From positions 1 to 64,000 of the IMG/VR virus record IMGVR_UViG_3300032218_001677: a stretch of DNA of 64,000 nucleotides, one strand, 5' to 3'. This DNA is from a virus (lineage: Duplodnaviria; Caudoviricetes). The position numbers were made by a program, and so were the translations under genes. Positions 5,421 through 55,214 of the stretch are shown here, piece after piece (position 1 is the stretch's first letter; each line of letters starts with the position of its first letter). The notes under the pieces were generated by a model. The model was not told where the DNA came from. It saw only the letters and a program-made list of their open reading frames with translations, and ran no database searches.

Positions 5421-5478
5421 ATGGGCATCCCGTAGTATAATATTGATTGTAACAAATATAGCACTATAGGAGCACAAA

Positions 5479-9050: not shown

Positions 9051-9539
9051 TTACTTTACAATAGCTCCGGTAAGCTTAACTGCGTCTGGGTCCCACACTG
9101 CAACAGTGCTGTAAGGCTTACCTTCTTTATTCACCCCAGAATTTTTATAGCCATGAAACCCGCGAGATTTTAGATGTTCGTGTAAGGCAGTTCCATCACT
9201 GAGAAACTCCCCATCACGATTCGCTTTGACGGTTGCGCCATGGTCATCTGAGGTGGCCAAACGGGCGTCAGGCGACAATTCTGCGGTAACCACAGCACCA
9301 GGCTCCAGCGGGGCTTTAACGCCGGTATATGGGTCATCATGGTGACCGCCCGTACGGGGAACTACATCAGTGGCGTAGTCTGAAGCTTCGGCAGGGTCTT
9401 CAGTAAAGTACATGGCCTGGCCGTACCGTTTGCCATTAATAGACGGTCTAGTGGTATCAAACCCGTCAGTAAGTATGCTGTTAGCACTGGCCAGTGATGT
9501 GCCATGGTACAAAGCAAACTGTTTAGGATTTAATGTCAT
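9051..9539 (-). CDS. ADP-ribosyltransferase-fold protein (H-Y class)
   Basis: LYHGTS...ILTDGF...YGQAMYFTED...ASDYA and terminal GFHGY...VAVWDPDAVK. Confidence 0.7.
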   Translation of the reverse strand: MTLNPKQFALYHGTSLASANSILTDGFDTTRPSINGKRYGQAMYFTEDPAEASDYATDVVPRTGGHHDDPYTGVKAPLEPGAVVTAELSPDARLATSDDHGATVKANRDGEFLSDGTALHEHLKSRGFHGYKNSGVNKEGKPYSTVAVWDPDAVKLTGAIVK

Positions 9540-15761: not shown

Positions 15762-17042
15762 ATGGCAAGTGTAAAAGAAATCAGAGTGGGAATGAGAGTG
15801 GTGGGTAAGTACCCGCCGTTCAAAGATGCTGAAGGTGAGATCACTCGCAGTACTCTTGTACCAGGTGGACCTGGTAGCAAGATTGCTGTGCGATTTGACG
15901 ATCCGTTATTGGGTGACGTGGAAATCTTACCTAAGGGTATTGAATTGGTTGGACGTGCTGTCGTTGCAAACGCCGCCCCGTCCAGCAATACAGTTTCACA
16001 AGTCGGAAATGTGATCATCAGCGATATGCGTATCGAATCGCTAGACGATCCTGCTTTGGACGACTTCCGTCCGAACATCAATCCTGCTAACTACGTATCA
16101 CGTACGCTTGCAGGCGGTAAAACAGACTTGGAAGTCATGGAAGCATACTTCAATCGTCGTGATGAGAACGACGGTTATCCAGTCTCGGTTGCCTTGGTAG
16201 GCGATACCCAGTCGGGTAAGACATACTTGATCCAAGTTCAAGCGTTCCGTATTGCGAAGTTGCTCGGCCTTCAGAAGCCATTGCCGTTGTTCCTGCTTGC
16301 AGGTTCATCAGCAATTACAGATCACGACTTGTTCGGCCAGTATCGTCCGATCATTGTCAATGGTCAGGAACGACTCGTATGGATGGAGGGCATCGTTGCT
16401 CTAGCCGCTCGTCTTGGTGGCATCTTGTACCTTGACGAGGTTAACGCTATGTCAGGTTCAGTAACAGCGGCTATTCACCCACTGCTTGACAATCGTCACC
16501 AGTTCGTGAACATCCGTAAGCCTGTTTGGAAAGGAACGGTTGAAACTGATCCAGTGACTGGCGTTGAGACACATCATGGTGCTTATCGTCCTGAGACAGT
16601 CATGGCCAACAAAAACCTGTGGATCATGGCAAGCTGGAACCCCGGCTACGCAGGTATGGCTAAGACCAACGAAGCGTTTGCTAACCGCTTCAAGCTCCTT
16701 GAATGGGGATATGACGAAGAGGTTGAGAAGAAACTCATCAAATCTCCTGCTGTTCGTTTGCTTGGCCAAGCATTACGTAATGCTCGTGCACAACGTAGCA
16801 TTACTACCCCTGTTGGTACTAGAGCATTACAGTTGCTTGAGGGTGACTTGGTTCACCTTGGAGTTGACTACAGCCTTTGGGCTTTCATGGGCCAGTTTGT
16901 GTCATCACAAGAAAAAATTGTAGTGAACGAGATCATCAAGGATCGTGGAATTGCAATCATGATGAAAGACGAATTCGAGCCTGACGTACCTGCGTCAGCA
17001 GTTGACCTCACATCGCTTATTGGCGATAACGAGCCTTACTGA
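15762..17042 (+). CDS. MoxR/CbbQ-like AAA+ ATPase with N-terminal SH3-like extension
   Basis: Walker A GDTQSGKT, Walker B LYLDEVN, ASWNPGYAG, AFANRF. Confidence 0.9.
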   Translation: MASVKEIRVGMRVVGKYPPFKDAEGEITRSTLVPGGPGSKIAVRFDDPLLGDVEILPKGIELVGRAVVANAAPSSNTVSQVGNVIISDMRIESLDDPALDDFRPNINPANYVSRTLAGGKTDLEVMEAYFNRRDENDGYPVSVALVGDTQSGKTYLIQVQAFRIAKLLGLQKPLPLFLLAGSSAITDHDLFGQYRPIIVNGQERLVWMEGIVALAARLGGILYLDEVNAMSGSVTAAIHPLLDNRHQFVNIRKPVWKGTVETDPVTGVETHHGAYRPETVMANKNLWIMASWNPGYAGMAKTNEAFANRFKLLEWGYDEEVEKKLIKSPAVRLLGQALRNARAQRSITTPVGTRALQLLEGDLVHLGVDYSLWAFMGQFVSSQEKIVVNEIIKDRGIAIMMKDEFEPDVPASAVDLTSLIGDNEPY

Positions 17043-19287: not shown

Positions 19288-19563
19288 ATGGAATGGTCAG
19301 ATGTTTCTGACGTTGAAATAGAGGAAGAACTGCCTAAGGTTATTCAGGTAGTTAAGATAATCAGATATGACGTTGAACGTGTTTTATCTGCTATGCAAAT
19401 TAATGGTGAGTTTCCTAGCCCAACCATCGAGGATGTTTTAAACGTTGTCGCTGGTTGGGCTTCGGAAGACTTTGGGTGTCAGTGGGGCCATCCCACTGAC
19501 GCATCAAAGTTAATGTACTTAGATGACTTAGGTGATCCATTGTACATGCCGGAGGAAGAATGA
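19288..19563 (+). CDS. Hypothetical acidic protein
   Basis: RBS AGGAGG. Confidence 0.65.
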   Translation: MEWSDVSDVEIEEELPKVIQVVKIIRYDVERVLSAMQINGEFPSPTIEDVLNVVAGWASEDFGCQWGHPTDASKLMYLDDLGDPLYMPEEE

Positions 19564-21032
19564 ATGGACAACTCAGTTCGGCAAACGTGCCGGCGTCCAA
19601 TTCGCTGTACCTGCCTAGTCTCGATCTAAATCTATTTGATTATCAAGTAGAAGCGTTTGAATGGGCTGTTGATAAACAACAGTCTTATTTAGCGTTAGAC
19701 ATGGGACTAGGCAAGACAGCAATAGCAATTGCGGTTGCTTCAGCGTTAGTTGAACAGCTGCAGCAAAAAGTACTTATCGTAGTTCCCCCCAGTCTTATAT
19801 TAAACTGGGTAACAGAATTTGGTAAGTTTAATAAGAATGTAAAAGTTGCAGTTCTGCGGGGCAAATCTCCAGTTAATTTGCCAGATGCCAATGTTTATAT
19901 AATTGGTAACGCAGTTTTAGCACAATGGGTTTTATTACTTATGGGCGAGATAGATGCCATCATAGTTGATGAAGCTCATTTCTTTAAAAACAACTCCAAG
20001 CGTACTAAAGCTTTGATAAGCCTTAGTCAGTACATGCCCGCTAATGCAATACGTGTTCTTATGTCAGGAACACCTGCTCCTAACGGGCGTAATATGGAGT
20101 TGGTTACACAAATAGATACGCTTGGCCCCAATGCATGGCAAGGCGTGGGTGGCATTGGCCATTTTTGGCAACACTATGCTCCCTGGTCTGGAGTGATTGT
20201 TAATGGTAAGAAAGTAGGAAGAATATCCACCAATGATCTAGACCTTAAAAACCGTATGCATAACTCTTTTATGTTTAGACGTAAAAGAGATGAAGTAATA
20301 GACTTACCTTCAAAAACAAGAACTACAGTTGTTCTAGAGGGCACAGGTACTGCTGTTGATGATTACATAGCATGCGAAAACGATTTGATTGCATGGCTTG
20401 AGTCGTTAGACAAAGATACAACTGGGGCCGAAAGAGCGTATGCATTAGTACGACTTGGTTTTTTGCGTAAGCATGTAGGTAAGGCTAAAGTTGAATCAAT
20501 CATTAAGTTTGTATCTGAAATACTAGATAATGAACCTGGTGGGGTGTTTATAGTTGCAGAACATGTAGACACTATGGATTCTTTAGTTGCTGGACTTAGC
20601 AAATATAAAGTTTGTGAAGTTCGTGGTGGTATGTCAGAGTCTGCTAAACATAAAGCAGTCAATGACTTTAATAGTGGCGCTTCAAGAGTTATGGTAGGTC
20701 AGATAATATCTGCTGGTACGGGCTTGACTCTTACTGGCAACGGTATTAATGTGAACCACCGAACAATCATTGCGCAGTTGCCGTGGAACCCTGCCTCGCT
20801 CAAACAAGCAGAGGATAGAGTACACAGAATTTCACAGTCAATGGATGTATGCGTTACCATTCCACTGTGTCATATAGAGGGTCGCCAAACAATTGATGAA
20901 AGATTGTGGGGTGTCCTTGAAGATAAAGCGTTCTCAACAGGAATACTTATTGATGGGGAAGCTGAAGTGTTACTTGAAACAATCCAAAACGGAGTGCTTG
21001 ACTCCTACAAACGAAAGAAGGTAAATCCATGA
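19560..21032 (+). CDS. SNF2-family helicase
   Basis: LALDMGLGKT, VVPPSL, DEAH, MSGTP, AGTGLTL, QAEDRVHRI. Confidence 0.92.
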   Translation: MNGQLSSANVPASNSLYLPSLDLNLFDYQVEAFEWAVDKQQSYLALDMGLGKTAIAIAVASALVEQLQQKVLIVVPPSLILNWVTEFGKFNKNVKVAVLRGKSPVNLPDANVYIIGNAVLAQWVLLLMGEIDAIIVDEAHFFKNNSKRTKALISLSQYMPANAIRVLMSGTPAPNGRNMELVTQIDTLGPNAWQGVGGIGHFWQHYAPWSGVIVNGKKVGRISTNDLDLKNRMHNSFMFRRKRDEVIDLPSKTRTTVVLEGTGTAVDDYIACENDLIAWLESLDKDTTGAERAYALVRLGFLRKHVGKAKVESIIKFVSEILDNEPGGVFIVAEHVDTMDSLVAGLSKYKVCEVRGGMSESAKHKAVNDFNSGASRVMVGQIISAGTGLTLTGNGINVNHRTIIAQLPWNPASLKQAEDRVHRISQSMDVCVTIPLCHIEGRQTIDERLWGVLEDKAFSTGILIDGEAEVLLETIQNGVLDSYKRKKVNP

Positions 21033-25078: not shown

Positions 25079-26143
25079 CTACAAATTTTTGATTAAATCT
25101 GTAAGTCTTTCCAATCCTATGTTTATGTCTCTTGAAGCAATTTGCTCACGCATAGGTTTCCCTAGTTCTTCTCGAACTTTTGGATCACATAATTTTTTTA
25201 TTGATTTAATCCAATCCATAGGATTTTTAGCTATTACACCTACACCCAAAGTCTTATATAAGTTTACGTAAGAGTCCAGGTCTTGTGCAATAAATGGAAT
25301 TCCTGAAGCAGCATATTCCAATCCTTTAATATCAGATTTGGCCATATTAAAAGGTGTTTTATTTAGAGGCACTATTCCAATATCCATTGTCAGTAAACTA
25401 GGGTAATCCTCTGCATGTGCCATCGGCTTAGTATCCACCATTGAGTGCTCTACACCTAGTCTGCTGGCAAAGGAAGGTGCAGATAAGTGGTCACCCCCGT
25501 GATAAAGACTGACCTTACCAGCATTAACTAATGGTGGCAATATCCCCTTTAAAGTTTCAATATCTTTACTTCTATGTGCTGTTGACCCTACCCACCCAAC
25601 TACTGGAGTGACTGTATCACTGTAGGTCACTTGGTTAAACCTATGAATGTCTACCGTGTTTTCTATTACATGAATTGGGCATCTGACAAACTTAGATATT
25701 CTGTCCCTAATGTAGGGGGTACTTACTGTGACAATATCAGATTTTGACAAAATTGTTTTATAAAAGTTTGTATTTTCAACTTTATTAAACTGTGGGTGAT
25801 TGTGGTTGAATGCCATATTTGAAGTGTCTAGACCCCAATACCAATCGTCAAGATCATTGATAATTTTTTGGCCATTTGCTCTAGCCATTGGGACGTGTTT
25901 AGTGAGGCCTTCATGCATTAATCGTTGCATATACACAACGTCAACTTCACTGACCTCACCATCAACTGAAATAATGACAAATCTGTCATGCATCCAAGTG
26001 AGTACACCAACACTTACATCAAATGGAAGTGTTGAAACGTACTGACCCAACCGGGCCCATCCGCTTCCTCCCCATTTGGCTTCATCTAAACCTGTTTTGT
26101 TTGGGTGTAACCAGTCACCCGATGCTATGCCTAGACGAAGCAC
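25079..26143 (-). CDS. Glycosyltransferase, GT-B fold (GT4-like)
   Basis: VVGWVGS..H, DIGIVPL...FNMAKSDIKGLEYAASGIPFIA. Confidence 0.88.
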   Translation of the reverse strand: MLRLGIASGDWLHPNKTGLDEAKWGGSGWARLGQYVSTLPFDVSVGVLTWMHDRFVIISVDGEVSEVDVVYMQRLMHEGLTKHVPMARANGQKIINDLDDWYWGLDTSNMAFNHNHPQFNKVENTNFYKTILSKSDIVTVSTPYIRDRISKFVRCPIHVIENTVDIHRFNQVTYSDTVTPVVGWVGSTAHRSKDIETLKGILPPLVNAGKVSLYHGGDHLSAPSFASRLGVEHSMVDTKPMAHAEDYPSLLTMDIGIVPLNKTPFNMAKSDIKGLEYAASGIPFIAQDLDSYVNLYKTLGVGVIAKNPMDWIKSIKKLCDPKVREELGKPMREQIASRDINIGLERLTDLIKNL

Positions 26144-27287: not shown

Positions 27288-27671
27288 TCACATGCTAGAA
27301 AGTTTAAAAACTAAAGATTCTATGTCAAAATCTTGCCCTCTAGCAGGGAAAATGTCCCGTGTGACATGTTTCCTAACTACTACAGAAGCTTCTCGGCACT
27401 TAGGGCATCTACATCCTGAGCGGTACATTTCAAGAGATCCGTGGTGCATTCTTGCTGTACCACGTCTCTCTTGTGGTGTCAAGCCACCCCACAAACCCCA
27501 GTGTTCTTCAATACCATAATCAAGACATTCTTGCCAAACCGGGCAAGTATTGCACACTGCTTTACCTGCTTTGTAGTAAGCGTTGTGGTTAGTCTCTTCT
27601 AACGGAGGGAAAAACAAGTTTGGGTGTAATCCCTTGCATGGGGATTCATCCATCCAAGGTTTAGAAGTCAT
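27288..27671 (-). CDS. whiB: WhiB-family regulator with C-terminal Cys/His extension
   Basis: WMDESPC...FFP...GKAVCNTCPVWQECL...WGLWGG plus HHG...YRSGCRCPKC. Confidence 0.88.
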   Translation of the reverse strand: MTSKPWMDESPCKGLHPNLFFPPLEETNHNAYYKAGKAVCNTCPVWQECLDYGIEEHWGLWGGLTPQERRGTARMHHGSLEMYRSGCRCPKCREASVVVRKHVTRDIFPARGQDFDIESLVFKLSSM

Positions 27672-28490: not shown

Positions 28491-29918
28491 TTAACTTAAA
28501 TCAATTACATCTTGAATAAACTGGTCAGTTTGATTTGGGCCCAATCCTCCACTAGGAAGTTGTCTGGCTGTTTCTCCAGCTTTGCTACCAAACAATCTAG
28601 AAAGTACCCCTGCGTTACCTCTTGCTTCCACTTCAATACGCATAAGATCACGGGTGTCAGAGATATTCTTGAACTTGTCAATGAGGGAGAATAACCTATC
28701 CATCTCTGATGACAAGGCTGGGTCAAGACCTTGGCCTTCCAGTTCTTCGGCAAATCTTGCAAACAAAACTCGGCTAGCTTGCATCTCAATCATTGCCTGC
28801 AACACGGCATTTAACTGATCTTTAGAACGTATTTCTACAGGTAGTTTAAACCCACAATCTGAATGTTCCTTGAATGCAGGACAACGTGATGCAAGATAGC
28901 AACTATCGCATTGTCGCAAAGGGCCACTTTGGTACCTAATGACAGGGGTCTCTGTAGGGGCAATTTCTATGTGTTCTCCCTGCTCAGAACCACTTTGTGT
29001 ACCCATTGAGATGATGTGTTCTATGCCCATGACCGGTAGCAATAGACGCTCACTTTCGTGCCGCTTCTCTAGGTGGGAGATAGCAATATTACCCCCCTTG
29101 GAAACCGGTTTATCTGCATTAGGTGACATAGGGGGTATATCAACTATACCCCCCTCTTCTACCTCTCCAAACTCGGACTCATCATCAGTAACTTGGGGGT
29201 CATAGCCCAAAAACGTGGACTGTTCCCAAGCCTTCCAAGACTTGATTGCAAGTGACCCAACCGCTGTCACATTATCTTCTAAGATTGCTTCGTAATCAAT
29301 ACCTAATCTTAAAATGTCTGCTCTGTGCTTCTTGCGAGAAGATTCTTTCTGCTGCGCAGGGTATCTGTGAAGACCATGCCCGTCCCATACTTGGGTCTCA
29401 CCATAGCGTATGGATGAGGTCCATGACCCCACCACAACAGCTTCCCAAGGTAATGCTTGGATAACGTCAGGTTTACTTGTTAAACCATAAAGCTTTGCTC
29501 CCCAACGCTGCGAGAGGGACCGGATACGCGGAAGTGTTTTAGAGTTTATAGCCTTGTCTGATATGGCAGCTCTACCATAACGTTGACATAACCATGCCAA
29601 TCTTTCTAAATCGTCGTCATCTGACCATACCGGGACATACTTGTCTCCAAGCCAGTCGCCATCCATATCGGGGCGGCCAATAACAACAGATAGAGAGTCA
29701 GCATGGTCTCTTACGAAGGTTTCGTACTTATTGAGGTCTTCATCCCCCTCTGACGTGTACACCAGTATTTCAGCAGAGGCAAATACTTCTTCAGGGTTAA
29801 ACTCTTTGCGCTTTGGAATAGGCAAATGGGTCACATTCACAGCTACTCTTGTTATTTCATTAGCTATGAGTAGGTTTCTATGAGTGCCCTTTTCAGCACC
29901 ACCAAAGAATATGTGCAT
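28491..29918 (-). CDS. Hypothetical protein: alpha/beta N-terminal domain, CxxC-x5-C-x8-C cluster, helical C-terminus
   Basis: 475-aa ORF; CDSCYLASRCPAFKEHSDC. Confidence 0.7.
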   Translation of the reverse strand: MHIFFGGAEKGTHRNLLIANEITRVAVNVTHLPIPKRKEFNPEEVFASAEILVYTSEGDEDLNKYETFVRDHADSLSVVIGRPDMDGDWLGDKYVPVWSDDDDLERLAWLCQRYGRAAISDKAINSKTLPRIRSLSQRWGAKLYGLTSKPDVIQALPWEAVVVGSWTSSIRYGETQVWDGHGLHRYPAQQKESSRKKHRADILRLGIDYEAILEDNVTAVGSLAIKSWKAWEQSTFLGYDPQVTDDESEFGEVEEGGIVDIPPMSPNADKPVSKGGNIAISHLEKRHESERLLLPVMGIEHIISMGTQSGSEQGEHIEIAPTETPVIRYQSGPLRQCDSCYLASRCPAFKEHSDCGFKLPVEIRSKDQLNAVLQAMIEMQASRVLFARFAEELEGQGLDPALSSEMDRLFSLIDKFKNISDTRDLMRIEVEARGNAGVLSRLFGSKAGETARQLPSGGLGPNQTDQFIQDVIDLS

Positions 29919-31109: not shown

Positions 31110-33008
31110 TCAGTAGTTATAATCTTGCGGACGACCATAGTCGTCACTCTCAACACCAAATCTTCGACTTGCCTCAACACCTTGGGAAGGGTAAGCTTGT
31201 CCGGGTCTAGGGTGACGTGAGGGACCTACATAAGGGCTTGAACCCGCAGGAAGTGGTGGTCTAGGGTGACGTGAAGGGCCTACATAAGGTGTTCTTGGTC
31301 CACCGGGTCTAGGGTGACGTGAGGGGGCAGTTTGTGGACCACTTGCGTCATAGTCTTCGCCCATACCCTCATACTGTGGTGGCATTCCACCATTAGGAAC
31401 AGAACCTTGCATAGGAACACCCATGCCCATATCACCAAAACGTGTAGTTTGTGGTGCACCTCTGGTTGGTCCACGTCCACCAAAAGCACCATTCATGGGG
31501 TGACCATAGGTACCTCTTGGGTTTACCTGCTGAATAGGTGCACTAGCAGGACTATCTCCTGCACCAATTTCACCCATAACTCTAGAACCAGGTCCAATTC
31601 CTCTTGGTCCGGGACCTATTTCACCCATTACTTGTGGTCCTGCCGGTAAACCACGATCTGGAGTACGTGTGTACTCTGCTCCTGGACCATAGTTAATTGG
31701 CCCACCACCAGGTGCGGTCATTACACGGTCAGCAGCTTTGTTCCACATTCTTCCAAAGAAACCGGGGCCTTTTGGGGCACCTGTAGAGTTATCCACAGTA
31801 GGAGGTGCTCCAGTGGTGGGAGTTTGCCCAGTACCTGCAGGTACACCACCACGGAACTTCTCTATGTCAGTCCCTGAAGGGGTTGTTGGAAGGCCAGTCG
31901 TAGGAGTTCCTTCAGTTGAAGTACCTTCAATTGCATCAGGAAACTTTTTAGCAAGAGAACCCTCATCTCCTTGTTCCCAAGAAGGACCCTGCCCACCTAC
32001 TCTGCGCTTACCTGGCATTGGATAAGGTTGTTCAGCTTGCCCTGGTGTACCAGTACGTCGTGTCTTCTTTACAACACGTCCTGAACCACCACCAAAGTTA
32101 TCTCCTTGATCAGGAGGAGTCATGGATGACCCTGGTGTTGAGCCAGTTGGAGGGGTTGAACCAGTGCCGGTCGCATCATAGTCCCCACCCATACCTTCGT
32201 ATTGACTAGGCATTCCACCAGTGTTTGAACCGGGCTCACCCTTTCTGGGTAGACCCATGTCTCTTTCACCCATATCTACGGGTTTAAACTTTTGTTTCTT
32301 TTTATCATCTTTAGGTTTATCGGCTTTAGGAGTTTGATCACCACCACCATTCCATGCTGGGTGATTGGGGTCAAACATAAACTGGTTATGGGTCTGCCTT
32401 GAGTTGGCACCACCAATTTGCTGTACGCCACCGTTGTTAGTGGCGCCAAAGCCAACTGACTTATCTGCACTAATGTCTCCACCTGCATTGATAGTTGCAC
32501 CACCAGATTGATTACCAGACTGTTTTGCGTTCATTCCAACTTTTACGTTGTTATTAGATGCTATTGCCATGGCTCCATCACTTCCTTGATCACCTGATGT
32601 ACCTCCACCAGTTTTTGAATTCTTATCTTTTTTATTTTTGTTTTTTAAAGGACCAGCAGCACCCACAAACCTTTTTAAGGTGTTTTCTTCACTAGACCCA
32701 GTTACTCCATATCTAGTACTATTATAGCTTGCACCACTACCAGGCACTTTTACAGTACCACTAACACCACTAGCATTATAAGTGGATGTATTACCACCTA
32801 AACGTCCGCTTACATCTCTGGAGTAAGTAGTTTGAAAACCTGGAGTGGTTGGGTTGCTACCTTCTGTTCTACCAGAACCATTAGCATATGCTTGACGCAG
32901 TTGCCAAGAGCCTGGAAGGATACCTTTATTTTGCAGATTTTGAGTGTAAAAGTCATGTGAAGGTGCTTTACCTTCGTCTTGAGTATAGAAATCTCCGTTA
33001 AAAGGCAT
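31110..33008 (-). CDS. Gly/Pro-rich, largely disordered protein with internal repeats
   Basis: Repeats GGMPxQYEGMGxDYDA x2, PSRHPRP x3, VMGEIG x2. Confidence 0.75.
   Translation of the reverse strand: MPFNGDFYTQDEGKAPSHDFYTQNLQNKGILPGSWQLRQAYANGSGRTEGSNPTTPGFQTTYSRDVSGRLGGNTSTYNASGVSGTVKVPGSGASYNSTRYGVTGSSEENTLKRFVGAAGPLKNKNKKDKNSKTGGGTSGDQGSDGAMAIASNNNVKVGMNAKQSGNQSGGATINAGGDISADKSVGFGATNNGGVQQIGGANSRQTHNQFMFDPNHPAWNGGGDQTPKADKPKDDKKKQKFKPVDMGERDMGLPRKGEPGSNTGGMPSQYEGMGGDYDATGTGSTPPTGSTPGSSMTPPDQGDNFGGGSGRVVKKTRRTGTPGQAEQPYPMPGKRRVGGQGPSWEQGDEGSLAKKFPDAIEGTSTEGTPTTGLPTTPSGTDIEKFRGGVPAGTGQTPTTGAPPTVDNSTGAPKGPGFFGRMWNKAADRVMTAPGGGPINYGPGAEYTRTPDRGLPAGPQVMGEIGPGPRGIGPGSRVMGEIGAGDSPASAPIQQVNPRGTYGHPMNGAFGGRGPTRGAPQTTRFGDMGMGVPMQGSVPNGGMPPQYEGMGEDYDASGPQTAPSRHPRPGGPRTPYVGPSRHPRPPLPAGSSPYVGPSRHPRPGQAYPSQGVEASRRFGVESDDYGRPQDYNY
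31204..31322. repeat. Three 17-bp direct repeats ggtctagggtgacgtga (coding)
   Basis: Starts at 31204, 31258 and 31306; spacings 54 and 48 are in frame and encode SRHPRP. Confidence 0.8.
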
Positions 33009-34936: not shown

Positions 34937-37900
34937 TTAATTTCCAATGGTAGCTCCGGTTGCTCTTGAACGCAACAACTGACCAGCTACCGTGCTTATG
35001 GCACTGTTTCTATCTGCTGTTAACTTTTCGTGTTGCTTTCTCTGTCGACCAAGTTCTCTTGCATTAGTAACTGGGCCTTCATCAGTTGTGGAGTGTATCA
35101 TTTCTCCAACTTCGGATTCTGTGGGCTTATAATCTGGATTTGCTATTATTTTTCTACCAGCTTCCCCACTTTTACCAACTGCATAACTATCATCTATAGT
35201 TTTGCTCATAGGTGTTCTGCTCATTCCACTTTCAGGAATGCCTGATACTGAGCTCATTGTAGGTGCTGGTGGTATTTCCATACTTGGAGCACCAGTACCA
35301 AATATTGCTCCCATTGCATTCAAAGTTCCTTGCATAACTTGAGGAGCAAATTGTTTTGCTTGGGTTACACGTGCATAAGACTCATTTGGGGTAGTTCTAA
35401 GTACATGTGCATGACGTTGTATTGCAGTTTGGTGTTCTGGCGATACAACTGCATTCTTTACAAGAGATCCATAACCAGCAGGCATTGGTGCCGGTGTTGG
35501 GTCTTTTTCAAAGAAAGTTTCAGGTTTTGAATAGTTTTGTGGACTTGGCCCAGATACAGCCGGTGGTTTTCTTCCACCAGTTAAATCTGTAAACTGCGGT
35601 GCATTTTGTCTAGCTAATCTACCGCGCATAACAGCTAACTTAGTAGTGTTTTTAGTGTTGAGTTGTGTTCCAATTGAAGTTTGTGCTGAAAGGCTACGAG
35701 GAGTAACAATGCTTTGGTTAATGCCAAGTGCTTTTGCTAAGTTAGCTCTATCCACTGACGCTTCTGGAATAGTAAATCTTTGGTTAGCTCTTGATGGAGC
35801 GGTAGTGTCGTCACCAACAACAGTAACATCCCCATACTCTCTTTCGGTTGATGTTCCTTCAGCAACAGGGGTATTTTGATCCATTCGATCACCGGCTGTT
35901 GCTACTTCCCCAAATTGTAAACTGGTTAAACCAGATATTCTAGCTGATGGTGATACTGGTGTAAACCTACCAGTTGCGTTTAAGGCCAAGTGAATAATGT
36001 CTTCTGGAGCAAACCCAGCTAAGTTTACTCTATTTGCAATTTCACGTCGTTGTCCTGGTGCTATCTTTTCAGTTACTCTGGGAAGTCCTTGTATTCTTAC
36101 ATATTCACCTGTTCCAGTTTTTGTATTAAAGGTGTTGCCTAAAACATCAAGTGCCGAAACTGGTGTAGCACCAAGACTTTTAGCGTTTTCTTCTGTTGCA
36201 GCAAAAACTTCTGCTTGACCAGTTGGAGCAGTTATTACATCTCCAGTTTCTGGGTGTCGTGCTAGGGTTCCTGGATCTTTTGGAACAGTTCTAGTAAGTT
36301 GTTTACCATCTTCTCCTAGTTCTGGGACTTTATTACCGTCTTTATCAAGAACATGTAGTTTGGACGTTCCCACATGCTTACCATCTGCGTTATACCTCTT
36401 AACTTCTTGCATTTTAAATACAGGTTCTTCTACGGTTTCTTCTGAAGGCGGGGTTTCCCATACTGGCATTTGTTTTTGTTGTAATACAGGTACCTTTTTT
36501 GGAAGTGAAGTTCTACCAAAGAAGCCTCTAGGTGCAGGGCCACCACGAACTGCTCGACTTTCACCAACTTTTGGTGTGTCTGGTCCTTGTTGAAGTACCC
36601 GTTCCGTTGGGTCTTCTGTCATTGTAGTTGTTGTTGCAGCTCTTGGGTTAATGTAATGCCCTTCAAATTTTGAAGGAACCATAGAAGCAATATGGCTTTC
36701 CAAGGACGCAATGGCGTCTTCATTCAGGCCTTGCTCATCTTTAGCGGCATCATAGTCTGCGTTTTCACGAAGGTCACCCATTTGAGCGGCTGTACCAATT
36801 TGTTCAGAGATGCGTTGTCTTTCGCTTTTTCTCCATTCAAGCTCGTTCTTATGACCTGTTAATTGCTCTTCACTAACGAAGTTATCAGGATGGGTTTCAG
36901 GAGTACCTACTGGTTCACGTCCAACTTTGTTATAAGCTATTTGTCCTCTTTCACGCGTTTTTGGAGCAGAGGAAATTGGGTTAACAATACTCTTATGAAG
37001 AGCTTTAAGAACATCTACTCTAGTGTTAATATCTAATTCATCATTAATTGAATCCTCTAACTCTAGGGGGATGGGTGCACCCTCAGCGTCTGTTACAGGG
37101 TTTTGTCGTATATCTTTTTTTAGACCGGCTTTAGCTTCAAGAGCAGCAATATGCTCTTCCATCGCTTTCTTTCCAGCTTTAGTAATTTCTCTCTTATGAG
37201 TAAGCTTCGTTAATCTATGTTGTTCTTTTTCTTCTTTAGTAGCATTACTTCTAAGTACTCCTAATTTAGTGTAACTAGGGTTTATCATGCCGGTTTTTGC
37301 ATCAACTGCTTTTGGATGTTGCATAAGTGGGTCGTCACTATTAAGCAACGTGTGCATTTCTTGTTCTGCTTTTTTACGAACACTCTGAAGTTCCGAAAAG
37401 TCACGTAAAGCTTGTTCAACATGAGGCTTACGCTCATTTAAGGCATTAACCTGAGTTAATAGCCGTTCACCTTCTTCTTTGTGAGCGATACTGTCGTACT
37501 CATCAGTAAGAGCATGCTCTTCAGCTCTTTCTTTTGACATCTTTCCAGCAGCAACTTGTTGTGCATCAAACTGATTACGACTTAATAATGCTGGTTTATA
37601 ACCAGCTGCTTTTTCTGCTATACGCTGTCTTGCAGCTGGTTCTACTGCTGATGCAGAAATGGCTCCTAGCCATGCAGGCAATCCACTGTTCTTTATTATA
37701 TCTTGACCAACTTCTTGTGTGGTCTTGCCTGTAGCAATTATGCCTCCTGCGGTAGCTTTCATTTTACGAAGAACACCAGGTTCAGTCAATTCACCTTTTT
37801 CATCCACTTTTACAGAAGGTGCAAAGTCAAGAGCATCATCCATACTGTCTGCGTTGTTACTTATTAAATCCCCAAGTTTTGCTTTAATACCATCTGGTAA

Positions 37901-40315
37901 AGCTTCGCTACCACCGGCTGTTAGGTTGCTTCGGCCTGAACCAATTCTATAATCATTTCCTTGAACGTAGTATGCAGGTACAGACATTGAACGCTCAGAT
38001 GCGTCTTGAGCCATTTCCTGTAGAACTATGTTATTTTCTCCACTTACAAAAGAACTAGGGCGTCTAAGAATAGTTCTCTTAGGCTTACCTCTACCAGTAC
38101 TCTTTTGTTGGAGTGTGCTACCTTTTGGAGCAGCAACTACTGCTACTGGGTCTAATCCAATATCAGTTGAAGTTCTACCAATTCGACTTGGAGATTCACT
38201 TCTAAGTCCGGCACTTCCAAGACCAGCTTTCCTTGCCTCTGTGATTGACTTTACGTTAAACTCAGCTTCAGATATTTGTGCGTCTAGAGCATCATGATCT
38301 TCTTGAGAAAAGTTTGTTCTATCTGTACTATGTAGTTCTTCTAACTTATTTTGTGCATCAAAAACACGACTTTCGGTTAACTCAGGGTTATTCTTTTCAA
38401 ACTCGAGTACTTTACCCTTGTTAACTTGTAACAGTTTCGAATCTGATTTTGCTTCAGCATTTACTATAGCTTCTTCAGCTACGTTATTACCTTTTTCAGT
38501 GTTACCGGTTATAACACTGTTTGGGGGGACACTATTGTAGGTTTCATCAGTAGCTTTTGTTAAATCATTTGTTTGTACTTCCTGTGTGTCTTTTTTCCAT
38601 ACTTTTTTAGCTTTTCCACTACTATCTGTTTTAGTTCTTTGCTGACCAGTAACTGGGTCAATGTCCGGAACTCTTTTAATGATAGTTTTTCCTCTTCTTG
38701 TATAGAATGTTCTGTCTTTATAAACAGGTGCCGGGGCTCCTCTAGTTTCTTCTCCTGCCCGAAGTCTGAGGGCGTTTAAGTCAAACTGTGATGATAGAGC
38801 TCCAGCTCTACGAATACGTTCTCTATCTTCTGGGGCTACTTTATCTAATTCTTTTTCAGAACGTGTGCGCTCTTCATCTGAAAGTTGGGTGCCTTCTTCG
38901 GCTAGGGCTTCAGATACAGGGTTGGCCGTTGGGGGATTTACAATTTCATTACCTTGAAGCATGTATTGTGATAATGCTTCTGCATTTAAAGCGTTTAAAG
39001 CAATTTCTGATCGTACAGTACCACCTTTTCTAGCTCTGTCAAGAACATCTGCTGCGGCTGTTTCACCTTTAACTCTTTCAGCTAACACGTTATTAGCAGT
39101 ATCTGTTCGTTTAGCAAGATCTTGGGTACCGGTCCACATACCAACTGATGCTTCTGTGGTAGCGGGGGTATCACTACGTTGTTCAATTGGGAGATCTGAC
39201 TCATCTCTTTGGGGACCTTCTTGCATGTTTGTTGGTGCAAGCTCTTCATCTGGGGTATCTCCCCAGCCTTCCATATACAGAATATGGGAAACATAATCTT
39301 TATTATTTGGTTTACCATCATTACCATGCCCCGTACGACTATACCTATCTCCACGGGCTTTACTTGGAATAAACCCACTGCCTCGTAAACTACTTAAAAT
39401 TTCTTGCACATGTGGAAGAGCTGCGTCTTCTTGATGTACTTCTGGTTTTTGAGATTTTTTAGGGTCATTTGTAGGATTTGAGTGACCCTCTTCTCCAGGT
39501 CGTACAATACGAATATGGCCTGCATCAACTGCTGCTTTAAGTAACCAATCTGCTCGTTGCCTTCTTGGAGTAAGGCCAGTACCTTTTTGGATCATAGGTA
39601 TGGTGTTACCAAGAGCACTATTTTCTCCTAAATCTTTAGCAAGATCAGTAGCGTCTGAAAACTTAGAGTCATCACTTTTACGTATGTTTGCCTCAATAGG
39701 CAGTACCGGACTCTCTTTACCGGCTTTCCCAGTAGGAGTTGTTTTAGTTACTTTCTTTGTCTTTTTTGCACCTTTACGAACAGGAACATCAGTTGTTACA
39801 GTTTGCTTTGTACCACCAACAACTCGGGTAGTACCATCAGCATCTGTAACTTTTTCACGACCTTGTGAGGCAAGGACTACTCTTTCCTTAACTTCAGCAA
39901 TATCAGTGCTAGTTGGAAAGTTTTTCATAAAAGTTTTTTTATTTTTTGCTACTTTTCTGAGTTCTCTTTCAGTACCAAGTTGTTGTATTTCAGATTCAGC
40001 TACAGCTGCTCCTCTATCAGCAGCTCTTGCAGAACCACGCTTTTCTCGGTCCGGGTTATCCCTATTTCGCTTAATTTCTGCTTCAATAGCAGAAGCTGCC
40101 ACATCCTTATGCCTTCCCATAAGGGCTCGTACAGCTTTACTAGCCTGTCCAAGTAAAGGTCTGTAGCTGGGGTCTGCTTCTACCGCGCTCTTTTTACCAC
40201 TTTCACCAATTTCATAAAAACCTTTAGATGCCTCAAGCAACTTTTTGTAGATTGCTTGGTCTTCTGCAGACAATAGTTCAATTTCGGCCTGTGTGGGGGC
40301 GGTTTGCTTTGCCAT
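34937..40315 (-). CDS. Giant (1792 aa) multidomain, largely low-complexity protein with an embedded GreA-like coiled coil
   Basis: Uninterrupted ORF with RBS GGAGA; contains RISEQIGTAAQMGDLRENADYDAAKDEQGLNEDAIASLE. Confidence 0.85.
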   Translation of the reverse strand: MAKQTAPTQAEIELLSAEDQAIYKKLLEASKGFYEIGESGKKSAVEADPSYRPLLGQASKAVRALMGRHKDVAASAIEAEIKRNRDNPDREKRGSARAADRGAAVAESEIQQLGTERELRKVAKNKKTFMKNFPTSTDIAEVKERVVLASQGREKVTDADGTTRVVGGTKQTVTTDVPVRKGAKKTKKVTKTTPTGKAGKESPVLPIEANIRKSDDSKFSDATDLAKDLGENSALGNTIPMIQKGTGLTPRRQRADWLLKAAVDAGHIRIVRPGEEGHSNPTNDPKKSQKPEVHQEDAALPHVQEILSSLRGSGFIPSKARGDRYSRTGHGNDGKPNNKDYVSHILYMEGWGDTPDEELAPTNMQEGPQRDESDLPIEQRSDTPATTEASVGMWTGTQDLAKRTDTANNVLAERVKGETAAADVLDRARKGGTVRSEIALNALNAEALSQYMLQGNEIVNPPTANPVSEALAEEGTQLSDEERTRSEKELDKVAPEDRERIRRAGALSSQFDLNALRLRAGEETRGAPAPVYKDRTFYTRRGKTIIKRVPDIDPVTGQQRTKTDSSGKAKKVWKKDTQEVQTNDLTKATDETYNSVPPNSVITGNTEKGNNVAEEAIVNAEAKSDSKLLQVNKGKVLEFEKNNPELTESRVFDAQNKLEELHSTDRTNFSQEDHDALDAQISEAEFNVKSITEARKAGLGSAGLRSESPSRIGRTSTDIGLDPVAVVAAPKGSTLQQKSTGRGKPKRTILRRPSSFVSGENNIVLQEMAQDASERSMSVPAYYVQGNDYRIGSGRSNLTAGGSEALPDGIKAKLGDLISNNADSMDDALDFAPSVKVDEKGELTEPGVLRKMKATAGGIIATGKTTQEVGQDIIKNSGLPAWLGAISASAVEPAARQRIAEKAAGYKPALLSRNQFDAQQVAAGKMSKERAEEHALTDEYDSIAHKEEGERLLTQVNALNERKPHVEQALRDFSELQSVRKKAEQEMHTLLNSDDPLMQHPKAVDAKTGMINPSYTKLGVLRSNATKEEKEQHRLTKLTHKREITKAGKKAMEEHIAALEAKAGLKKDIRQNPVTDAEGAPIPLELEDSINDELDINTRVDVLKALHKSIVNPISSAPKTRERGQIAYNKVGREPVGTPETHPDNFVSEEQLTGHKNELEWRKSERQRISEQIGTAAQMGDLRENADYDAAKDEQGLNEDAIASLESHIASMVPSKFEGHYINPRAATTTTMTEDPTERVLQQGPDTPKVGESRAVRGGPAPRGFFGRTSLPKKVPVLQQKQMPVWETPPSEETVEEPVFKMQEVKRYNADGKHVGTSKLHVLDKDGNKVPELGEDGKQLTRTVPKDPGTLARHPETGDVITAPTGQAEVFAATEENAKSLGATPVSALDVLGNTFNTKTGTGEYVRIQGLPRVTEKIAPGQRREIANRVNLAGFAPEDIIHLALNATGRFTPVSPSARISGLTSLQFGEVATAGDRMDQNTPVAEGTSTEREYGDVTVVGDDTTAPSRANQRFTIPEASVDRANLAKALGINQSIVTPRSLSAQTSIGTQLNTKNTTKLAVMRGRLARQNAPQFTDLTGGRKPPAVSGPSPQNYSKPETFFEKDPTPAPMPAGYGSLVKNAVVSPEHQTAIQRHAHVLRTTPNESYARVTQAKQFAPQVMQGTLNAMGAIFGTGAPSMEIPPAPTMSSVSGIPESGMSRTPMSKTIDDSYAVGKSGEAGRKIIANPDYKPTESEVGEMIHSTTDEGPVTNARELGRQRKQHEKLTADRNSAISTVAGQLLRSRATGATIGN

Positions 40316-40377
40316 GTGGAAGGTCTCCTAGATAGTGAAAGACAAGATAAACAATAATACCACTTTATATGTATGTA

Positions 40378-40659
40378 TTATCGTTCGACAGGCCTAAAAG
40401 CAATAGCTGATATGGTCTCTCCATTGTCACCTTCAATATCATCAAAGCCAATGACAAAGCATAGGTCTACGCCTCGAGGGGCTACAAAACCTCGGGCAAT
40501 TGCACAAGCTTTAACAGCTTGGTTTACAGCACTTGCACCGATAGCTCGCATCTTTGGGTGCTGTCCAGCAATTACTGCTCGGGCTACGATAGAGCCAACA
40601 CTCTGGGGGTTGCTGCTACCGGAAACTTTTACAACATCGTCTACATTATCTTGTGACAT
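40378..40659 (-). CDS. spoVS: Stage V sporulation protein S (SpoVS) family, Alba-like fold
   Basis: VVKVSGSSNPQSVGSIVA...MRAIGASAVNQAVKACAIARGFVAPRGVDL...GF.DI.G...ISAI. Confidence 0.9.
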   Translation of the reverse strand: MSQDNVDDVVKVSGSSNPQSVGSIVARAVIAGQHPKMRAIGASAVNQAVKACAIARGFVAPRGVDLCFVIGFDDIEGDNGETISAIAFRPVER

Positions 40660-48522: not shown

Positions 48523-50070
48523 CTATACATGTGAGTCACGCAGGAATTGCGTGAGACTTCCTAGTGTTATATCAAACCCACCACGAATATCATGGTGTTT
48601 GCCATCCACAAATGCTTCATTAATTGAACGTTTTTGTTGGAGCATTTCGTATTGGCGTTCCTCAATACTACCCTGCATAACAAAAGTTGCAATAGTAACG
48701 TGAGGAAATTCTGAGGAAAGTCTAATAATTCTTGCTTCTCTTTGTTCGAGCTTTCCACTACTCCATGGGAGGTCATATGAGATTAAATAGTTGGCCATAG
48801 GTAAGTCAACACCATATCCACCAGCATCTGAGGATAGGAATAAACGAGTGTCTGGGTCGGTACCAAACTGCTGTTTAGAATTGTCACGATCTTCCGCTGA
48901 CATCCCGCCCATAAATAAAACACTCTTTGTTAACTTAGAGGTGGCTTCTTTAATCAATCTTAGGTTTTCTTTAAAGAAAGAAAATAGCACTACCTTATTT
49001 TTTGGGTCTGCACTAAGGACTTCTTCAATGTACTCAACTACTGCATTAAGTTTTGGGGTGTCTATTGCTTTAGATAAGTAGCCTCTTGAGTCAATATCAA
49101 ATGCGTAGGCGCTTCCCTCGTTAGGGCGTTTTGGGTCTGCATATATTGCAGCGGATCTTGATACCAGATTTGGGTTATCACATAGCATTCTAAGGACAGT
49201 TAATCTAGACATGATCTGCCCTTGTGCTTCATTGGAGGCTGGGTCATTGTAATGCTTCCATAGATTGAAAGAACCACCGTGTTTGGACATGGCTTGCTGA
49301 AGCTGGTGCAGCAGGTCAGTTGCAATAGTTCTGTATAATGTTGCCCCGTGGGTATCAAATGGTACAGGAATTAACTGGTGAATAATTTCAGGAAGCTGAT
49401 CAGCAATGTCTTCTCTAGTTTTTCTGATCATGCAGTCTTCCATTGAGTAATGGAGATTGTTTAAGTTTCGGTAGCGGACTGGTTTACCATAGTAATCACG
49501 AACTATGAAGGTCCTATCAAAGGCATCAAATGGACCCAGTACCGTTGGGTCAACAAACTCCATGATAGAAAACAGTTCTTCTGGTCGGTTTTCAATTGGC
49601 TGGCCAGTTAGAGCGTACCTATAGACCATAGGTTTGGATATTCTTTTTACCATTTTAGAACGCTTACTTGAACGGGATTTAAGCATTGTTGCTTCGTCCA
49701 CTACAATTGCTTGACAAGGTATACGTTTAAAGAACTCTAAGTCTCTAATAAGACATTCAGTATTAACAATTACGTACTGTGATGAGATAGCTGCTTTCCA
49801 AAGTTTTTCTCTTGTTTTTGCAGGACCATCAATAACAGTTACTCTTGAATTTGTAAACCTCTGTATTTCACGTTTCCACTGATACTTGAGCGATGCTGGG
49901 ACAACAATTAAACAACGATCAATGTCTCTGTTGGTTAGTAAGGTCTCTATGCAAGAGATAGTTGTGACAGTTTTACCTGCTCCCATGACAAGGCCAAGAA
50001 GCACCTGACCACGGTCAAGCATCTTTTCAACTGATTCTTCTTGGTATGGGTAAAGGGAACCTGTAAACAT
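48523..50070 (-). CDS. SNF2-family helicase
   Basis: LVMGAGKT, VVDEAT, LTGQP, SSDAGGYGVDL, YDLPWS, QREARIIR. Confidence 0.92.
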   Translation of the reverse strand: MFTGSLYPYQEESVEKMLDRGQVLLGLVMGAGKTVTTISCIETLLTNRDIDRCLIVVPASLKYQWKREIQRFTNSRVTVIDGPAKTREKLWKAAISSQYVIVNTECLIRDLEFFKRIPCQAIVVDEATMLKSRSSKRSKMVKRISKPMVYRYALTGQPIENRPEELFSIMEFVDPTVLGPFDAFDRTFIVRDYYGKPVRYRNLNNLHYSMEDCMIRKTREDIADQLPEIIHQLIPVPFDTHGATLYRTIATDLLHQLQQAMSKHGGSFNLWKHYNDPASNEAQGQIMSRLTVLRMLCDNPNLVSRSAAIYADPKRPNEGSAYAFDIDSRGYLSKAIDTPKLNAVVEYIEEVLSADPKNKVVLFSFFKENLRLIKEATSKLTKSVLFMGGMSAEDRDNSKQQFGTDPDTRLFLSSDAGGYGVDLPMANYLISYDLPWSSGKLEQREARIIRLSSEFPHVTIATFVMQGSIEERQYEMLQQKRSINEAFVDGKHHDIRGGFDITLGSLTQFLRDSHV

Positions 50071-53448: not shown

Positions 53449-54703
53449 GGGTCACTCTCCGATAGTTATAAATCGCTGAAACAATCGTATCAGCGGCGGG
53501 TCGGAGGGTAGTACGAGTTTTTGCAAGCAGTTCTTTTGGAAGTGTGATACCAACAAGATCTTCCTGTAATTCTTTAAGGTCTGCCTCTTCTTCTCCAATA
53601 TGCCACTTGACCAGGGAGTTTAAAGAACTAATTTGGTTTCTAAACAATGATGATGAGAAATCATCAGCTAGCTCGATAACTTGTGCTACTAGCTCTGGGT
53701 ACCTATAGCACACGTCCATTCCTGAGATAATAATAACCTTACGTAAGGCTTCATCAGAAGATTTATCCCAAGGTAAATCCAGCCCCTCACGATTAAAGTC
53801 ATTGAGCATCAAACTCAGAATTGGACTGGTGTTATCTAACACTGTGTCAAGTGTTTCCATTAGGGATGCTTGAACACCTTTGCTAGAAAACATAAGAACT
53901 GGGGATTCTGCTCCACGCATACGGTCGGTGCTAAAGAACTTGTCAATCATTTGACGAACGGTTGTTCGTGAAACACCAGCGTCTAGTAGAAGTTTGATTG
54001 TTCTGCGGAGAATGTTCATGTCCTGAAAGGAGTACGAACAAACCATTACTGATCTGGGATGGTAAACAAAGTAACTAGCTAAGTCGTTTACCTCTGGTCG
54101 GGGTTTACGTTTTACTGGTTCTTCAACCTTTGCTTTTTCGTTTACGTCTGCTCCAAGAATCATATCCTCTACCTTATCACGAGGGCCATCGGCCTTCTTT
54201 ACGGTTTTATTACTATTACTCTCTATTATTACTATTTCTCTAGAGATCAGCGCTTTTGTTACTTGTGCTGGTGTTATGTTCATTTTGATAGGGTCATGGG
54301 TGACCCCATTGGGGGTAGTGGGTAGGGTCATGGGTGACCCTATTAAGGGTGTTGTGTTGGTGGTTGATAGGGTCATGGGTGACCCTATTGCTGGTTGTGT
54401 GTAGTTAATAATGTAAGTGTTTGGTTTTGGTTTTTGTCGTAATTTTGTTGTGATTATTTGTTGCTCTGAGAGCCATTTGAGTGATCGTTTTACAGTTTCT
54501 TTTGAAGTGTACGATGCATCAGCAATCTCTTGAATAGACGCCGAAACAGATTTATTATGGATGTGCATCATTGAAACAAGGCATGTTAAAACCTGCAGAT
54601 CGCGTGGTTGACCATGCTTAAAAATGAGGGGCACTGCCCACTCAGGGACTGCTAAAAAGCGTCCACCAAAAACGTTACTGGTTCCCATTGGACTAGTGAT
54701 CAT
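53438..54703 (-). CDS. Replication initiator with N-terminal winged HTH
   Basis: ASIQEIADASYTSKETVKRSLKWLSEQQII; sits upstream of loader, helicase and primase; internal DNA repeats. Confidence 0.75.
   Translation of the reverse strand: MITSPMGTSNVFGGRFLAVPEWAVPLIFKHGQPRDLQVLTCLVSMMHIHNKSVSASIQEIADASYTSKETVKRSLKWLSEQQIITTKLRQKPKPNTYIINYTQPAIGSPMTLSTTNTTPLIGSPMTLPTTPNGVTHDPIKMNITPAQVTKALISREIVIIESNSNKTVKKADGPRDKVEDMILGADVNEKAKVEEPVKRKPRPEVNDLASYFVYHPRSVMVCSYSFQDMNILRRTIKLLLDAGVSRTTVRQMIDKFFSTDRMRGAESPVLMFSSKGVQASLMETLDTVLDNTSPILSLMLNDFNREGLDLPWDKSSDEALRKVIIISGMDVCYRYPELVAQVIELADDFSSSLFRNQISSLNSLVKWHIGEEEADLKELQEDLVGITLPKELLAKTRTTLRPAADTIVSAIYNYRRVTHGN
54288..54389. repeat. Three iteron-like palindromic repeats GGGTCA-TGGG-TGACCC (putative replication origin)
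   Basis: Cores at 54291, 54325 and 54370 inside the initiator gene; spacing 34 is out of frame. Confidence 0.8.
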
Positions 54704-54779
54704 AGCCCACTCCAGCTGTCTCCACAACCAACATTCAAAAATGGTACGATTTAGGGTGGACAAAACAACCGGGAGTTTT

Positions 54780-55214
54780 ATGAAAGATTTAATCAAGTCG
54801 CTCAAAGTGCTAATGTCAGATGTAGTCACTTTCTATTTTATGGCACATGGTTATCATTGGAACGTAGAGGGTCCAGATTTTAGTCAATATCATGAACTAT
54901 TTGAAACAATCTATTCAGATGCTTATAGTTCAATTGACCCAATTGCTGAAAACATCCGTAAGTTAGATGATTATGCCCCGTTTAGTCTTCAGAAGTTTCT
55001 TGATTTAAGAACTATTGAATTTAAAGATGTACAACCTAACCCTAAAGCAATGGCAAATTCTTTACTAACTGCTAATGACGCACTATTGGGTGTTCTTAAA
55101 GATACTTTTGATGTATCTATAAAAGCTGACGAACAGGGCATTGCTAATTTCTTGGCAGAACGTATTGACATGCATCAAAAATGGGCTTGGCAACTCCGAG
55201 CCTCAACCAAGTAA
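54780..55214 (+). CDS. dps: Dps (DNA-binding ferritin-like protein)
   Basis: HGYHWNVEGPDFSQYHELFE...D.IAENIRKL...HQKWAWQL; RBS GGGAG. Confidence 0.95.
   Translation: MKDLIKSLKVLMSDVVTFYFMAHGYHWNVEGPDFSQYHELFETIYSDAYSSIDPIAENIRKLDDYAPFSLQKFLDLRTIEFKDVQPNPKAMANSLLTANDALLGVLKDTFDVSIKADEQGIANFLAERIDMHQKWAWQLRASTK

Follow-up and report, generated by a model that had tools for sequence, protein, structure and literature searches.

The DNA analysed here, referred to below as the window, comprises the first 64 kb of the 89,790-bp virus record IMGVR_UViG_3300032218_001677 from IMG/VR, whose rated completeness is 99%. On its minus strand it carries an open reading frame (ORF) for a giant protein of 1792 amino acids (aa), in which we find the N-terminal coiled coil of the bacterial transcription factors GreA and GreB. 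The gene is placed within a block of replication and recombination genes, all on the same strand, behind a SpoVS-like gene. The giant ORF, its parts and its upstream border are given below, together with ratios of non-synonymous to synonymous substitution rates (dN/dS) and predicted local distance difference test (pLDDT) scores of the structural models.

40378..40659, minus strand: SpoVS-like gene (PF04232, 74.4 bits), directly upstream of the giant ORF and the conserved left border of the slot discussed below
40325..40329, minus strand: Shine-Dalgarno-like AGGAG, 9 nt before the ATG of the giant ORF, read from the sequence
34937..40315, minus strand: giant ORF, 1792 aa, from the ORF and its translation
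40046..40315, minus strand: N-terminal helical domain, aa 1-90 (dN/dS 0.06; pLDDT ~70-84)
37130..37579, minus strand: conserved helical core of long helices, aa 913-1062 (pLDDT 80-95), common to most giant alleles
36680..36883, minus strand: Gre-factor N-terminal antiparallel coiled coil, aa 1145-1212, identified with PF03449, our own profile, AlphaFold2 (AF2) and comparison with 1grj
36752..36778, minus strand: tip loop G1180-Y1188 (GDLRENADY) of the coiled coil, from the alignment to 1grj and its invariant residues
36443..36679, minus strand: segment of 79 aa (aa 1213-1291) with the position and length of a Gre C-terminal domain (CTD), predicted to be disordered and lying within an insertion of about 200 aa
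36281..36436, minus strand: small beta-strand unit of four strands, aa 1294-1345 (pLDDT 85-91), downstream of the Gre cassette
34976..35359, minus strand: C-terminal segment, aa 1653-1780, the sole part common to the otherwise unrelated allele P0009 at locus L005 (46% identity over ~130 aa)

The giant protein is hydrophilic, with no cysteine and about 22% hydrophobic residues throughout. AF2 models gave a mean pLDDT of 50.5 for aa 1-900 and of 59.8 for aa 900-1792, the latter part being modelled from an input alignment of giant homologues and full-length GreA proteins; more than half of the residues scored below 50. Judged from these models, the protein can be pictured as a disordered string that carries folded beads. 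The PHROGs collection holds no family for it, megablast and tblastn searches of GenBank phages returned no close relatives, and a feature search of the ESM Atlas gave no usable match.

Identity of the Gre-type hairpin

A Pfam scan of the entire giant protein returned GreA_GreB_N (PF03449) and no other domain. The match covers aa 1147-1211 and positions 3-68 of the 71 in the profile, with an E-value of 2e-15 and a score of 57.1 bits (cut-off 24.5). A hidden Markov model (HMM) that we built from the N-domains of 25 bacterial GreA proteins scored 81.7 bits on the giant protein. HMMER, run exhaustively over 1.84 billion representative proteins, yielded 262 matches, nearly all of them Gre-sized and covering only aa ~1144-1219. 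At the sequence level, the match to the Gre N-domain is far beyond chance.

Structural modelling led to the same assignment. In the AF2 model, helices at aa 1149-1178 and aa 1186-1211 run antiparallel to each other, with pLDDT values of 90-96. GreA (9a7t_B, 1grj), GreB (2p4v) and Gfh1 ranked first in a Foldseek search with the hairpin (77-84 columns), and the top match in VIA-align was E. coli GreA (1grj_A; Z 10.6, root mean square deviation 1.2 Å over 74 residues). Helical hairpins are common and many unrelated ones reach a Z-score of about 9, which makes the Z-score by itself weak evidence; we read the structural match as homology because the sequence evidence supports it. We conclude that aa 1145-1212 are a genuine, host-derived GreA/GreB N-terminal coiled coil.

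A reading made earlier from the letters of this DNA, hereafter the sequence-only reading, had proposed a phage-captured GreA/GreB-like finger in this protein. It had quoted a string of 60 residues, which we find exactly at aa 1150-1209 (36689-36868, minus strand); the plus strand at the coordinates that it had given translates into nonsense. It had named as checks a search with the GreA_GreB_N profile, a structure prediction and a survey of tip conservation among homologues. The significant Pfam match, the predicted antiparallel hairpin and the conservation of the tip among close homologues described next all support the domain identity that it had assigned, and none of the three outcomes that it had listed as refuting was observed for these homologues.

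The alignment to E. coli GreA (1grj) is gap-free across the tip and places D1181 and E1184 opposite GreA D41 and E44, in agreement with the earlier claim that the acidic tip residues are retained. N1185 and Y1188 correspond to N47 and Y50 of the M. tuberculosis Gre factor. All four residues are invariant in six close homologues of the giant protein, which share 57-100% overall identity with it and in which the reading frame stays open. The coordination of Mg2+ and the binding of RNA are reported to require these four residues; the tip Asn and Tyr are needed to bind backtracked RNA, and the inactive M. tuberculosis homologue Rv3788 lacks both (PMC3132773). The giant protein thus possesses both the acidic tip of the Gre family and the Asn and Tyr for backtracked RNA.

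The hairpin also stands out by its slow evolution. In a comparison with the allele at locus L002, the giant gene as a whole has a dN/dS of 0.29, whereas its neighbouring genes have values of 0.016-0.037 at comparable synonymous divergence (dS 0.46-0.88); at the protein level the giant therefore evolves about ten times faster. With a dN/dS of 0.07 in the same comparison, the hairpin is the most constrained part of the gene, and only aa 1-90 are comparable.

The second domain of Gre factors is not recognisable downstream of the hairpin, as the sequence-only reading had stated. PF01272 was not detected in the giant protein even at E<=10, an HMM of the CTD alone scored <=0 bits on aa 1210-1450, and hhalign against an alignment of Gre CTDs gave a probability below 1%. 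AF2 left aa 1220-1291 disordered (pLDDT of the segment 28-36) despite the full-length GreAs in the input alignment. Some phmmer alignments to full-length GreA, including 1grj, extend to GreA position ~133, and a MAFFT alignment places a few collinear remnants of Gre CTD motifs in aa 1213-1291. Since neither the CTD HMM nor hhalign gave a signal and AF2 predicted disorder, we rejected a degenerate Gre CTD as a domain; the segment is possibly what is left of a decayed one. The low complexity that had been ascribed to the flanks of the hairpin holds for the downstream side, which is disordered, but not for the upstream side, where aa 913-1062 form a confidently helical and conserved core.

The giant protein shares with GreA and GreB (E. 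coli GreA, 1grj; M. tuberculosis Rv1080c) a homologous N-terminal coiled coil, the length of the tip loop and the D/E/N/Y residues. Gre factors are stand-alone proteins of ~155-165 aa, whereas the finger described here is phage-encoded, embedded in 1792 aa and without a recognisable C-terminal RNA polymerase (RNAP)-docking domain (PF01272). Although one of its domains belongs to the Gre family, the giant protein, with no C-domain and no stand-alone form, does not qualify as a Gre factor.

The slot behind the SpoVS-like gene and its alleles

With the SpoVS-like gene as a handle, we compared 80 IMG/VR loci out of 188 relatives. The gene adjoins the variable slot in every related locus, with 75-99% identity across the 80 loci, and the related contigs are perfectly syntenic. 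The ORF behind the SpoVS-like gene can be as short as 48 aa or as long as 1953 aa. At 19 loci, the ORF is complete and measures 758-1953 aa, and these ORFs fall into several families that BLAST cannot connect. Locus L005 has flanking proteins that match those of the window at 95-99.7% identity, and its 1454-aa slot protein shares only the last ~130 residues with the giant, at 46% identity. The flanks at L002 are 92-98% identical and the giant 69%; at L004, the corresponding values are 74-89% for the flanks and 28% for the giant, the latter over aa 1-1110 only. As judged from these comparisons, the giant gene is a hypervariable cassette in a slot behind the SpoVS-like gene.

Divergence within the gene is uneven as well. 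Relative to the allele at L006:10001-15340, dS is ~0.02 at aa 913-1650, 0.51 in the last 140 residues and 0.20 at aa 91-630, a mosaic pattern that indicates recombination within the giant gene. The Gre-less allele P0009 (L005:10001-14365) holds two copies of the family's conserved C-terminal motif, at ~aa 802 and ~aa 1306, which hints at internal duplication of modules in the giants. A second fast-evolving gene of the block is an ORF of 632 aa (31110-33008, minus strand) without a Pfam or PHROG match; it is 69-73% identical where its neighbours exceed 92%, and its dN/dS is 0.21-0.29.

Several parts of the window's giant recur in other alleles of the slot. Residues 1-166 are 36-37% identical to the alleles L018, L024 and L027, and the helical core (aa 913-1062) is 27-34% identical to L010, L012, L018, L020, L023, L024 and L027. 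A profile of this core found nothing significant among PDB sequences. The beta-strand unit is common to the Gre-less alleles L018 and L027, with aa 1323-1542 of the window's protein aligning to aa 1197-1421 of L027. Between the shared core and beta unit, the window allele has an insertion of about 200 residues (aa ~1122-1322) relative to L018, L027 and L024. The first 68 and the following 79 residues of this insertion resemble GreA in size and order.

A complete two-domain Gre is present at aa ~1530-1720 of two sister alleles, L020 (1953 aa) and L023 (1948 aa), with scores of 60.5 and 57.8 bits for PF03449 and of 44.4 and 39.1 bits for PF01272. The two alleles occupy the same slot after the SpoVS-like gene and share the giant, hydrophilic architecture, the core (27-30% identity) and the conserved Gre tip with the window's protein, to which they are otherwise barely alignable. 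They differ from it in keeping both Gre domains and in the distance between cassette and core, which is ~400 residues greater. Three further giants with a complete Gre are present in the protein database (P0157, P0158 and P0160), one of which was named GreA by JGI. We found no Gre signal in the positional orthologues P0008/L024, L018/L027, P0009/L014, L009 and L010/L012, a Pfam scan of 11 other slot alleles returned no domain at all, and a six-frame scan of all 80 loci revealed Gre nowhere beyond L020 and L023. The distant positional orthologues without the domain, the two with a complete GreA and the hypervariability of the gene go beyond what the sequence-only reading had described. A tree of Gre N-domains, which bears on whether there was one capture or two, rests on 76 columns only and has supports of 0.04-0.79.

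In a narrow pattern scan of IMG/VR, we also encountered canonical stand-alone two-domain GreA genes of 154-160 aa at four loci (L091, L092, L094 and L095). One of them is centrally placed on a contig of 89.7 kb whose GC content is 27%. The four genes could encode Gre factors that truly belong to phages, or they could be part of host flanks.

The phage and its gene neighbourhood

The phage has a gene set of the myovirus type, with sheath, a tape measure of 1007 aa, capsid, portal and terminase, all located away from the giant gene; portal, capsid and terminase genes are more than 35 kb distant. The possibility that the giant itself is a tail tape-measure protein was rejected, as a separate gene for the 1007-aa tape measure adjoins the sheath gene (L007:2170-5193). 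The block that contains the giant gene is arranged as follows.

First half, minus strand: DnaC-like loader, DnaB, primase, SNF2 helicase, SSB, PolA, RecA/UvsX
Second half, minus strand: Cas4-like exonuclease, RusA, SpoVS-like gene, giant gene, small ORFs, the variable 632-aa ORF, DpdA-like transglycosylase, WhiB

A scan for promoters and terminators around the giant gene found sites no more numerous than in shuffled sequence.

The capsid protein is 61% identical to those of the Streptomyces phages BRock and GiJojo (genus Borockvirus), and the Borockvirus phages are the nearest cultured relatives. Because of this relationship and of a WhiB gene (27288-27671, minus strand; 55.8 bits), we assign the virus, from its sequence, to the actinobacterial phages, as the sequence-only reading had done. 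A GC content of 42% and the presence of relatives in lake metagenomes suggest that the host is a low-GC freshwater actinobacterium. When the phage WhiB was searched against genome contigs for a relative that would reveal the host, none was found. BRock possesses the SpoVS-like gene, and the corresponding region of its genome (L089, NC_048650.1:16325-34570) retains, in this order, a resolvase, SpoVS, small genes, a transglycosylase and a queuine tRNA-ribosyltransferase, with only small genes at the slot. Since BRock is without a giant gene, the giants seem to have arisen as a novelty within the freshwater lineage.

No gene for a multisubunit RNAP was found in the 99%-complete phage genome, and the phage appears to depend on the polymerase of its host. 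Two further candidate modifiers of host transcription are a sigma-70 protein that comprises region 4 only (6058-6609, minus strand; 46.7 bits) and a PARP-like ADP-ribosyltransferase (9051-9539, minus strand; 37.4 bits). Together with WhiB, these predicted proteins all point to manipulation of host RNAP. The DpdA-like gene of the block, related to queuine-tRNA-ribosyltransferases (28491-29918, minus strand; phrog_887), has its counterpart in BRock. It is accompanied in the window by two glycosyltransferase-like genes (25079-26143 and 4767-5912), and this set of predicted enzymes suggests a phage DNA that carries a 7-deazaguanine derivative as its modification.

Possible roles of the giant protein in host transcription

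Secondary-channel factors are central regulators of bacterial transcription. We favour, with slightly better than even confidence, the view that the Gre finger docks in the secondary channel of the host RNAP and promotes transcript cleavage or arrest relief from within a giant scaffold. A whole host greA gene would have been captured in frame into the hypervariable family of giant proteins, and the C-terminal docking domain would have decayed into a linker in the window allele. The hairpin would most likely enter the secondary channel of the host enzyme, where it would probably promote cleavage of backtracked transcripts or relieve arrest on phage DNA, and it would also tether the polymerase to the giant scaffold. 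Since the Gre C-domain normally docks on β', another source of affinity is required; the binding energy could be supplied by other parts of the giant protein, as in HelD. We infer RNAP binding, the direction of the effect and an origin by whole-gene capture. For use of the secondary channel we rely on the domain identity, the intact four-residue tip, the purifying selection on the hairpin, the full Gre in an otherwise unrelated allele group and the apparent dependence of the phage on host RNAP. A cleavage-competent, anti-arrest role is favoured because all four tip residues, including Asn and Tyr, are kept. One may speculate that the location in the replication block would suit a protein that frees phage DNA under replication from arrested polymerases; the DpdA-like gene makes it probable that this DNA is modified.

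Three observations weigh against this proposal. The missing Gre C-domain is one, since this domain binds the β' coiled coil; a single mutation in it, S127E, abolishes RNAP binding and activity of the M. tuberculosis Gre factor (PMC3132773). Acidic tips are also found in inhibitory or recycling factors such as Gfh1 and HelD. Moreover, only two of the 19 complete giant ORFs from the IMG/VR loci carry the Gre module; with so few slot alleles possessing it, the Gre function is therefore dispensable for the phage lineage.

HelD provides a parallel for a Gre-like arm that lacks its docking domain. HelD proteins of classes I and II insert an N-terminal, Gre-like arm with an acidic tip into the secondary channel, have no Gre C-domain, and hold RNAP with other parts (PMC12802891). 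The giant protein has a comparable layout, a Gre-like arm without the Gre C-domain in a larger protein. On this model, the arm could plug the channel in the manner of Gfh1, which is among the structural matches, or pry RNAP off nucleic acids in the manner of HelD, and so serve host transcription shut-off or the clearing of polymerases from replicating phage DNA instead of stimulating cleavage. Its position among replication and recombination genes, where removal of arrested RNAP would help, is in keeping with such a dislodger. We nevertheless consider an inhibitor or dislodger unlikely. Cellular HelD, ~770 aa long, is an SF1-helicase-like ATPase whose arm is N-terminal, whereas Pfam and PHROG searches detected no UvrD/Rep-type SF1 domains in the giant, and Pfam found no helicase, ATPase or other additional domain; its hairpin is a Gre homologue at the sequence level, whereas the HelD arm is only a structural look-alike. 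With no multisubunit RNAP of the phage detected, a phage that inhibited the host enzyme across the board would defeat its own ends. Conservation extends to N1185 and Y1188, two residues typical of Gre factors that are competent in cleavage, and the sister alleles carry a canonical two-domain GreA. The sequence-only reading had also raised delivery as an internal virion protein, and an effector packaged in the head and ejected like T4 Alt, the N4 virion RNAP or polyvalent proteins could hit RNAP before phage gene expression, by cleavage or by inhibition alike. A very large, mostly disordered protein whose architecture is hypervariable among orthologues would suit such a role, and a similar diversification has been described for polyvalent proteins, which are giant phage proteins with drastically differing orthologue architectures that are interpreted as conflict or host-takeover effectors (PMC5512222). 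Polyvalent proteins, however, contain many recognisable enzymatic domains and are encoded beside packaging genes, whereas the mostly disordered giant has a single recognisable domain and belongs to a replication module. Its neighbours are RusA and SpoVS on one side and DpdA and WhiB on the other, and not head-packaging (portal, MuF) or conjugation genes, nor is it near the tail genes. It possesses no MuF, portal-associated, peptidase or other hub domain of polyvalent proteins, the survey of these proteins contains no Gre domain (PMC5512222), and in BRock, the closest relative in culture, the slot is without a giant gene. The position of the gene and the absent packaging and hub domains argue mildly against virion packaging, which we regard as distinctly improbable.

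The hairpin could alternatively be an exapted structural element, a stable spacer or oligomerisation unit that has no role at RNAP. The loss of the docking domain, the absence of the module from most alleles and the abundance of unrelated hairpins with similar Z-scores would all be expected in this case. A tip loop is structurally unneeded in a hairpin, however, and this one is invariant at D, E, N and Y; the hairpin is far more constrained than the rest of the gene (dN/dS 0.07 versus 0.29), and a complete Gre has been kept in a second allele group despite the divergence of the remainder beyond alignment. Of the explanations weighed here, we find this one the hardest to believe. A bolder reading, which we put forward as rather doubtful, is that the slot giants are a new class of RNAP-capturing scaffolds, hypervariable and largely disordered, that seize the host polymerase. 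Some alleles would do so with a stolen Gre finger and others with modules as yet unrecognised. The polymerase would be concentrated on replicating phage DNA, possibly as a condensate-like compartment for transcription and replication, and, as part of an arms race with the host, recombination would exchange entire alleles.

Among mobile-element-encoded proteins, TraR and Orf73 of phage lambda (DksA family) are comparable in acting via the RNAP secondary channel (PMC9239242). Both are zinc-finger proteins of the DksA type from Proteobacteria, with a small size of ~73 aa, whereas the giant has a Gre-type fold and an actinobacterial host; it contains no cysteine, unlike the four-cysteine zinc finger of DksA and TraR, and it has no DksA-family match in Pfam. 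TraR and lambda Orf73 were all that came up when the full-text literature was searched for Gre or secondary-channel factors encoded by phages, and in the searches made we met no Gre domain described within a giant phage protein. Gre is important for survival in mycobacteria (PMC3132773). If the favoured role of the finger is correct, actinobacterial phages, too, target the secondary channel of RNAP. The slot would then offer a natural experiment on a Gre N-domain without the docking domain that sister alleles still carry, and the finger would be a recognisable functional handle on an otherwise opaque, hypervariable family of giant disordered phage proteins. In our analysis, a Gre finger in such a protein would point to a previously undescribed way to grip or tune the host transcription machine.

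Other genes in the window are noted here for completeness. Two genes encode SNF2-family helicases on opposite strands, one at 48523-50070 (minus strand) and one at 19560-21032 (plus strand); the latter adjoins a gene for an AAA_5 (dynein-related) ATPase (15762-17042) and an ORF of 739 aa with an HNH-like stretch. A Dps/ferritin-like gene (54624-55214, plus strand; PF00210, 54.4 bits) lies on the strand opposite to the replication block, between the latter and the tail genes.

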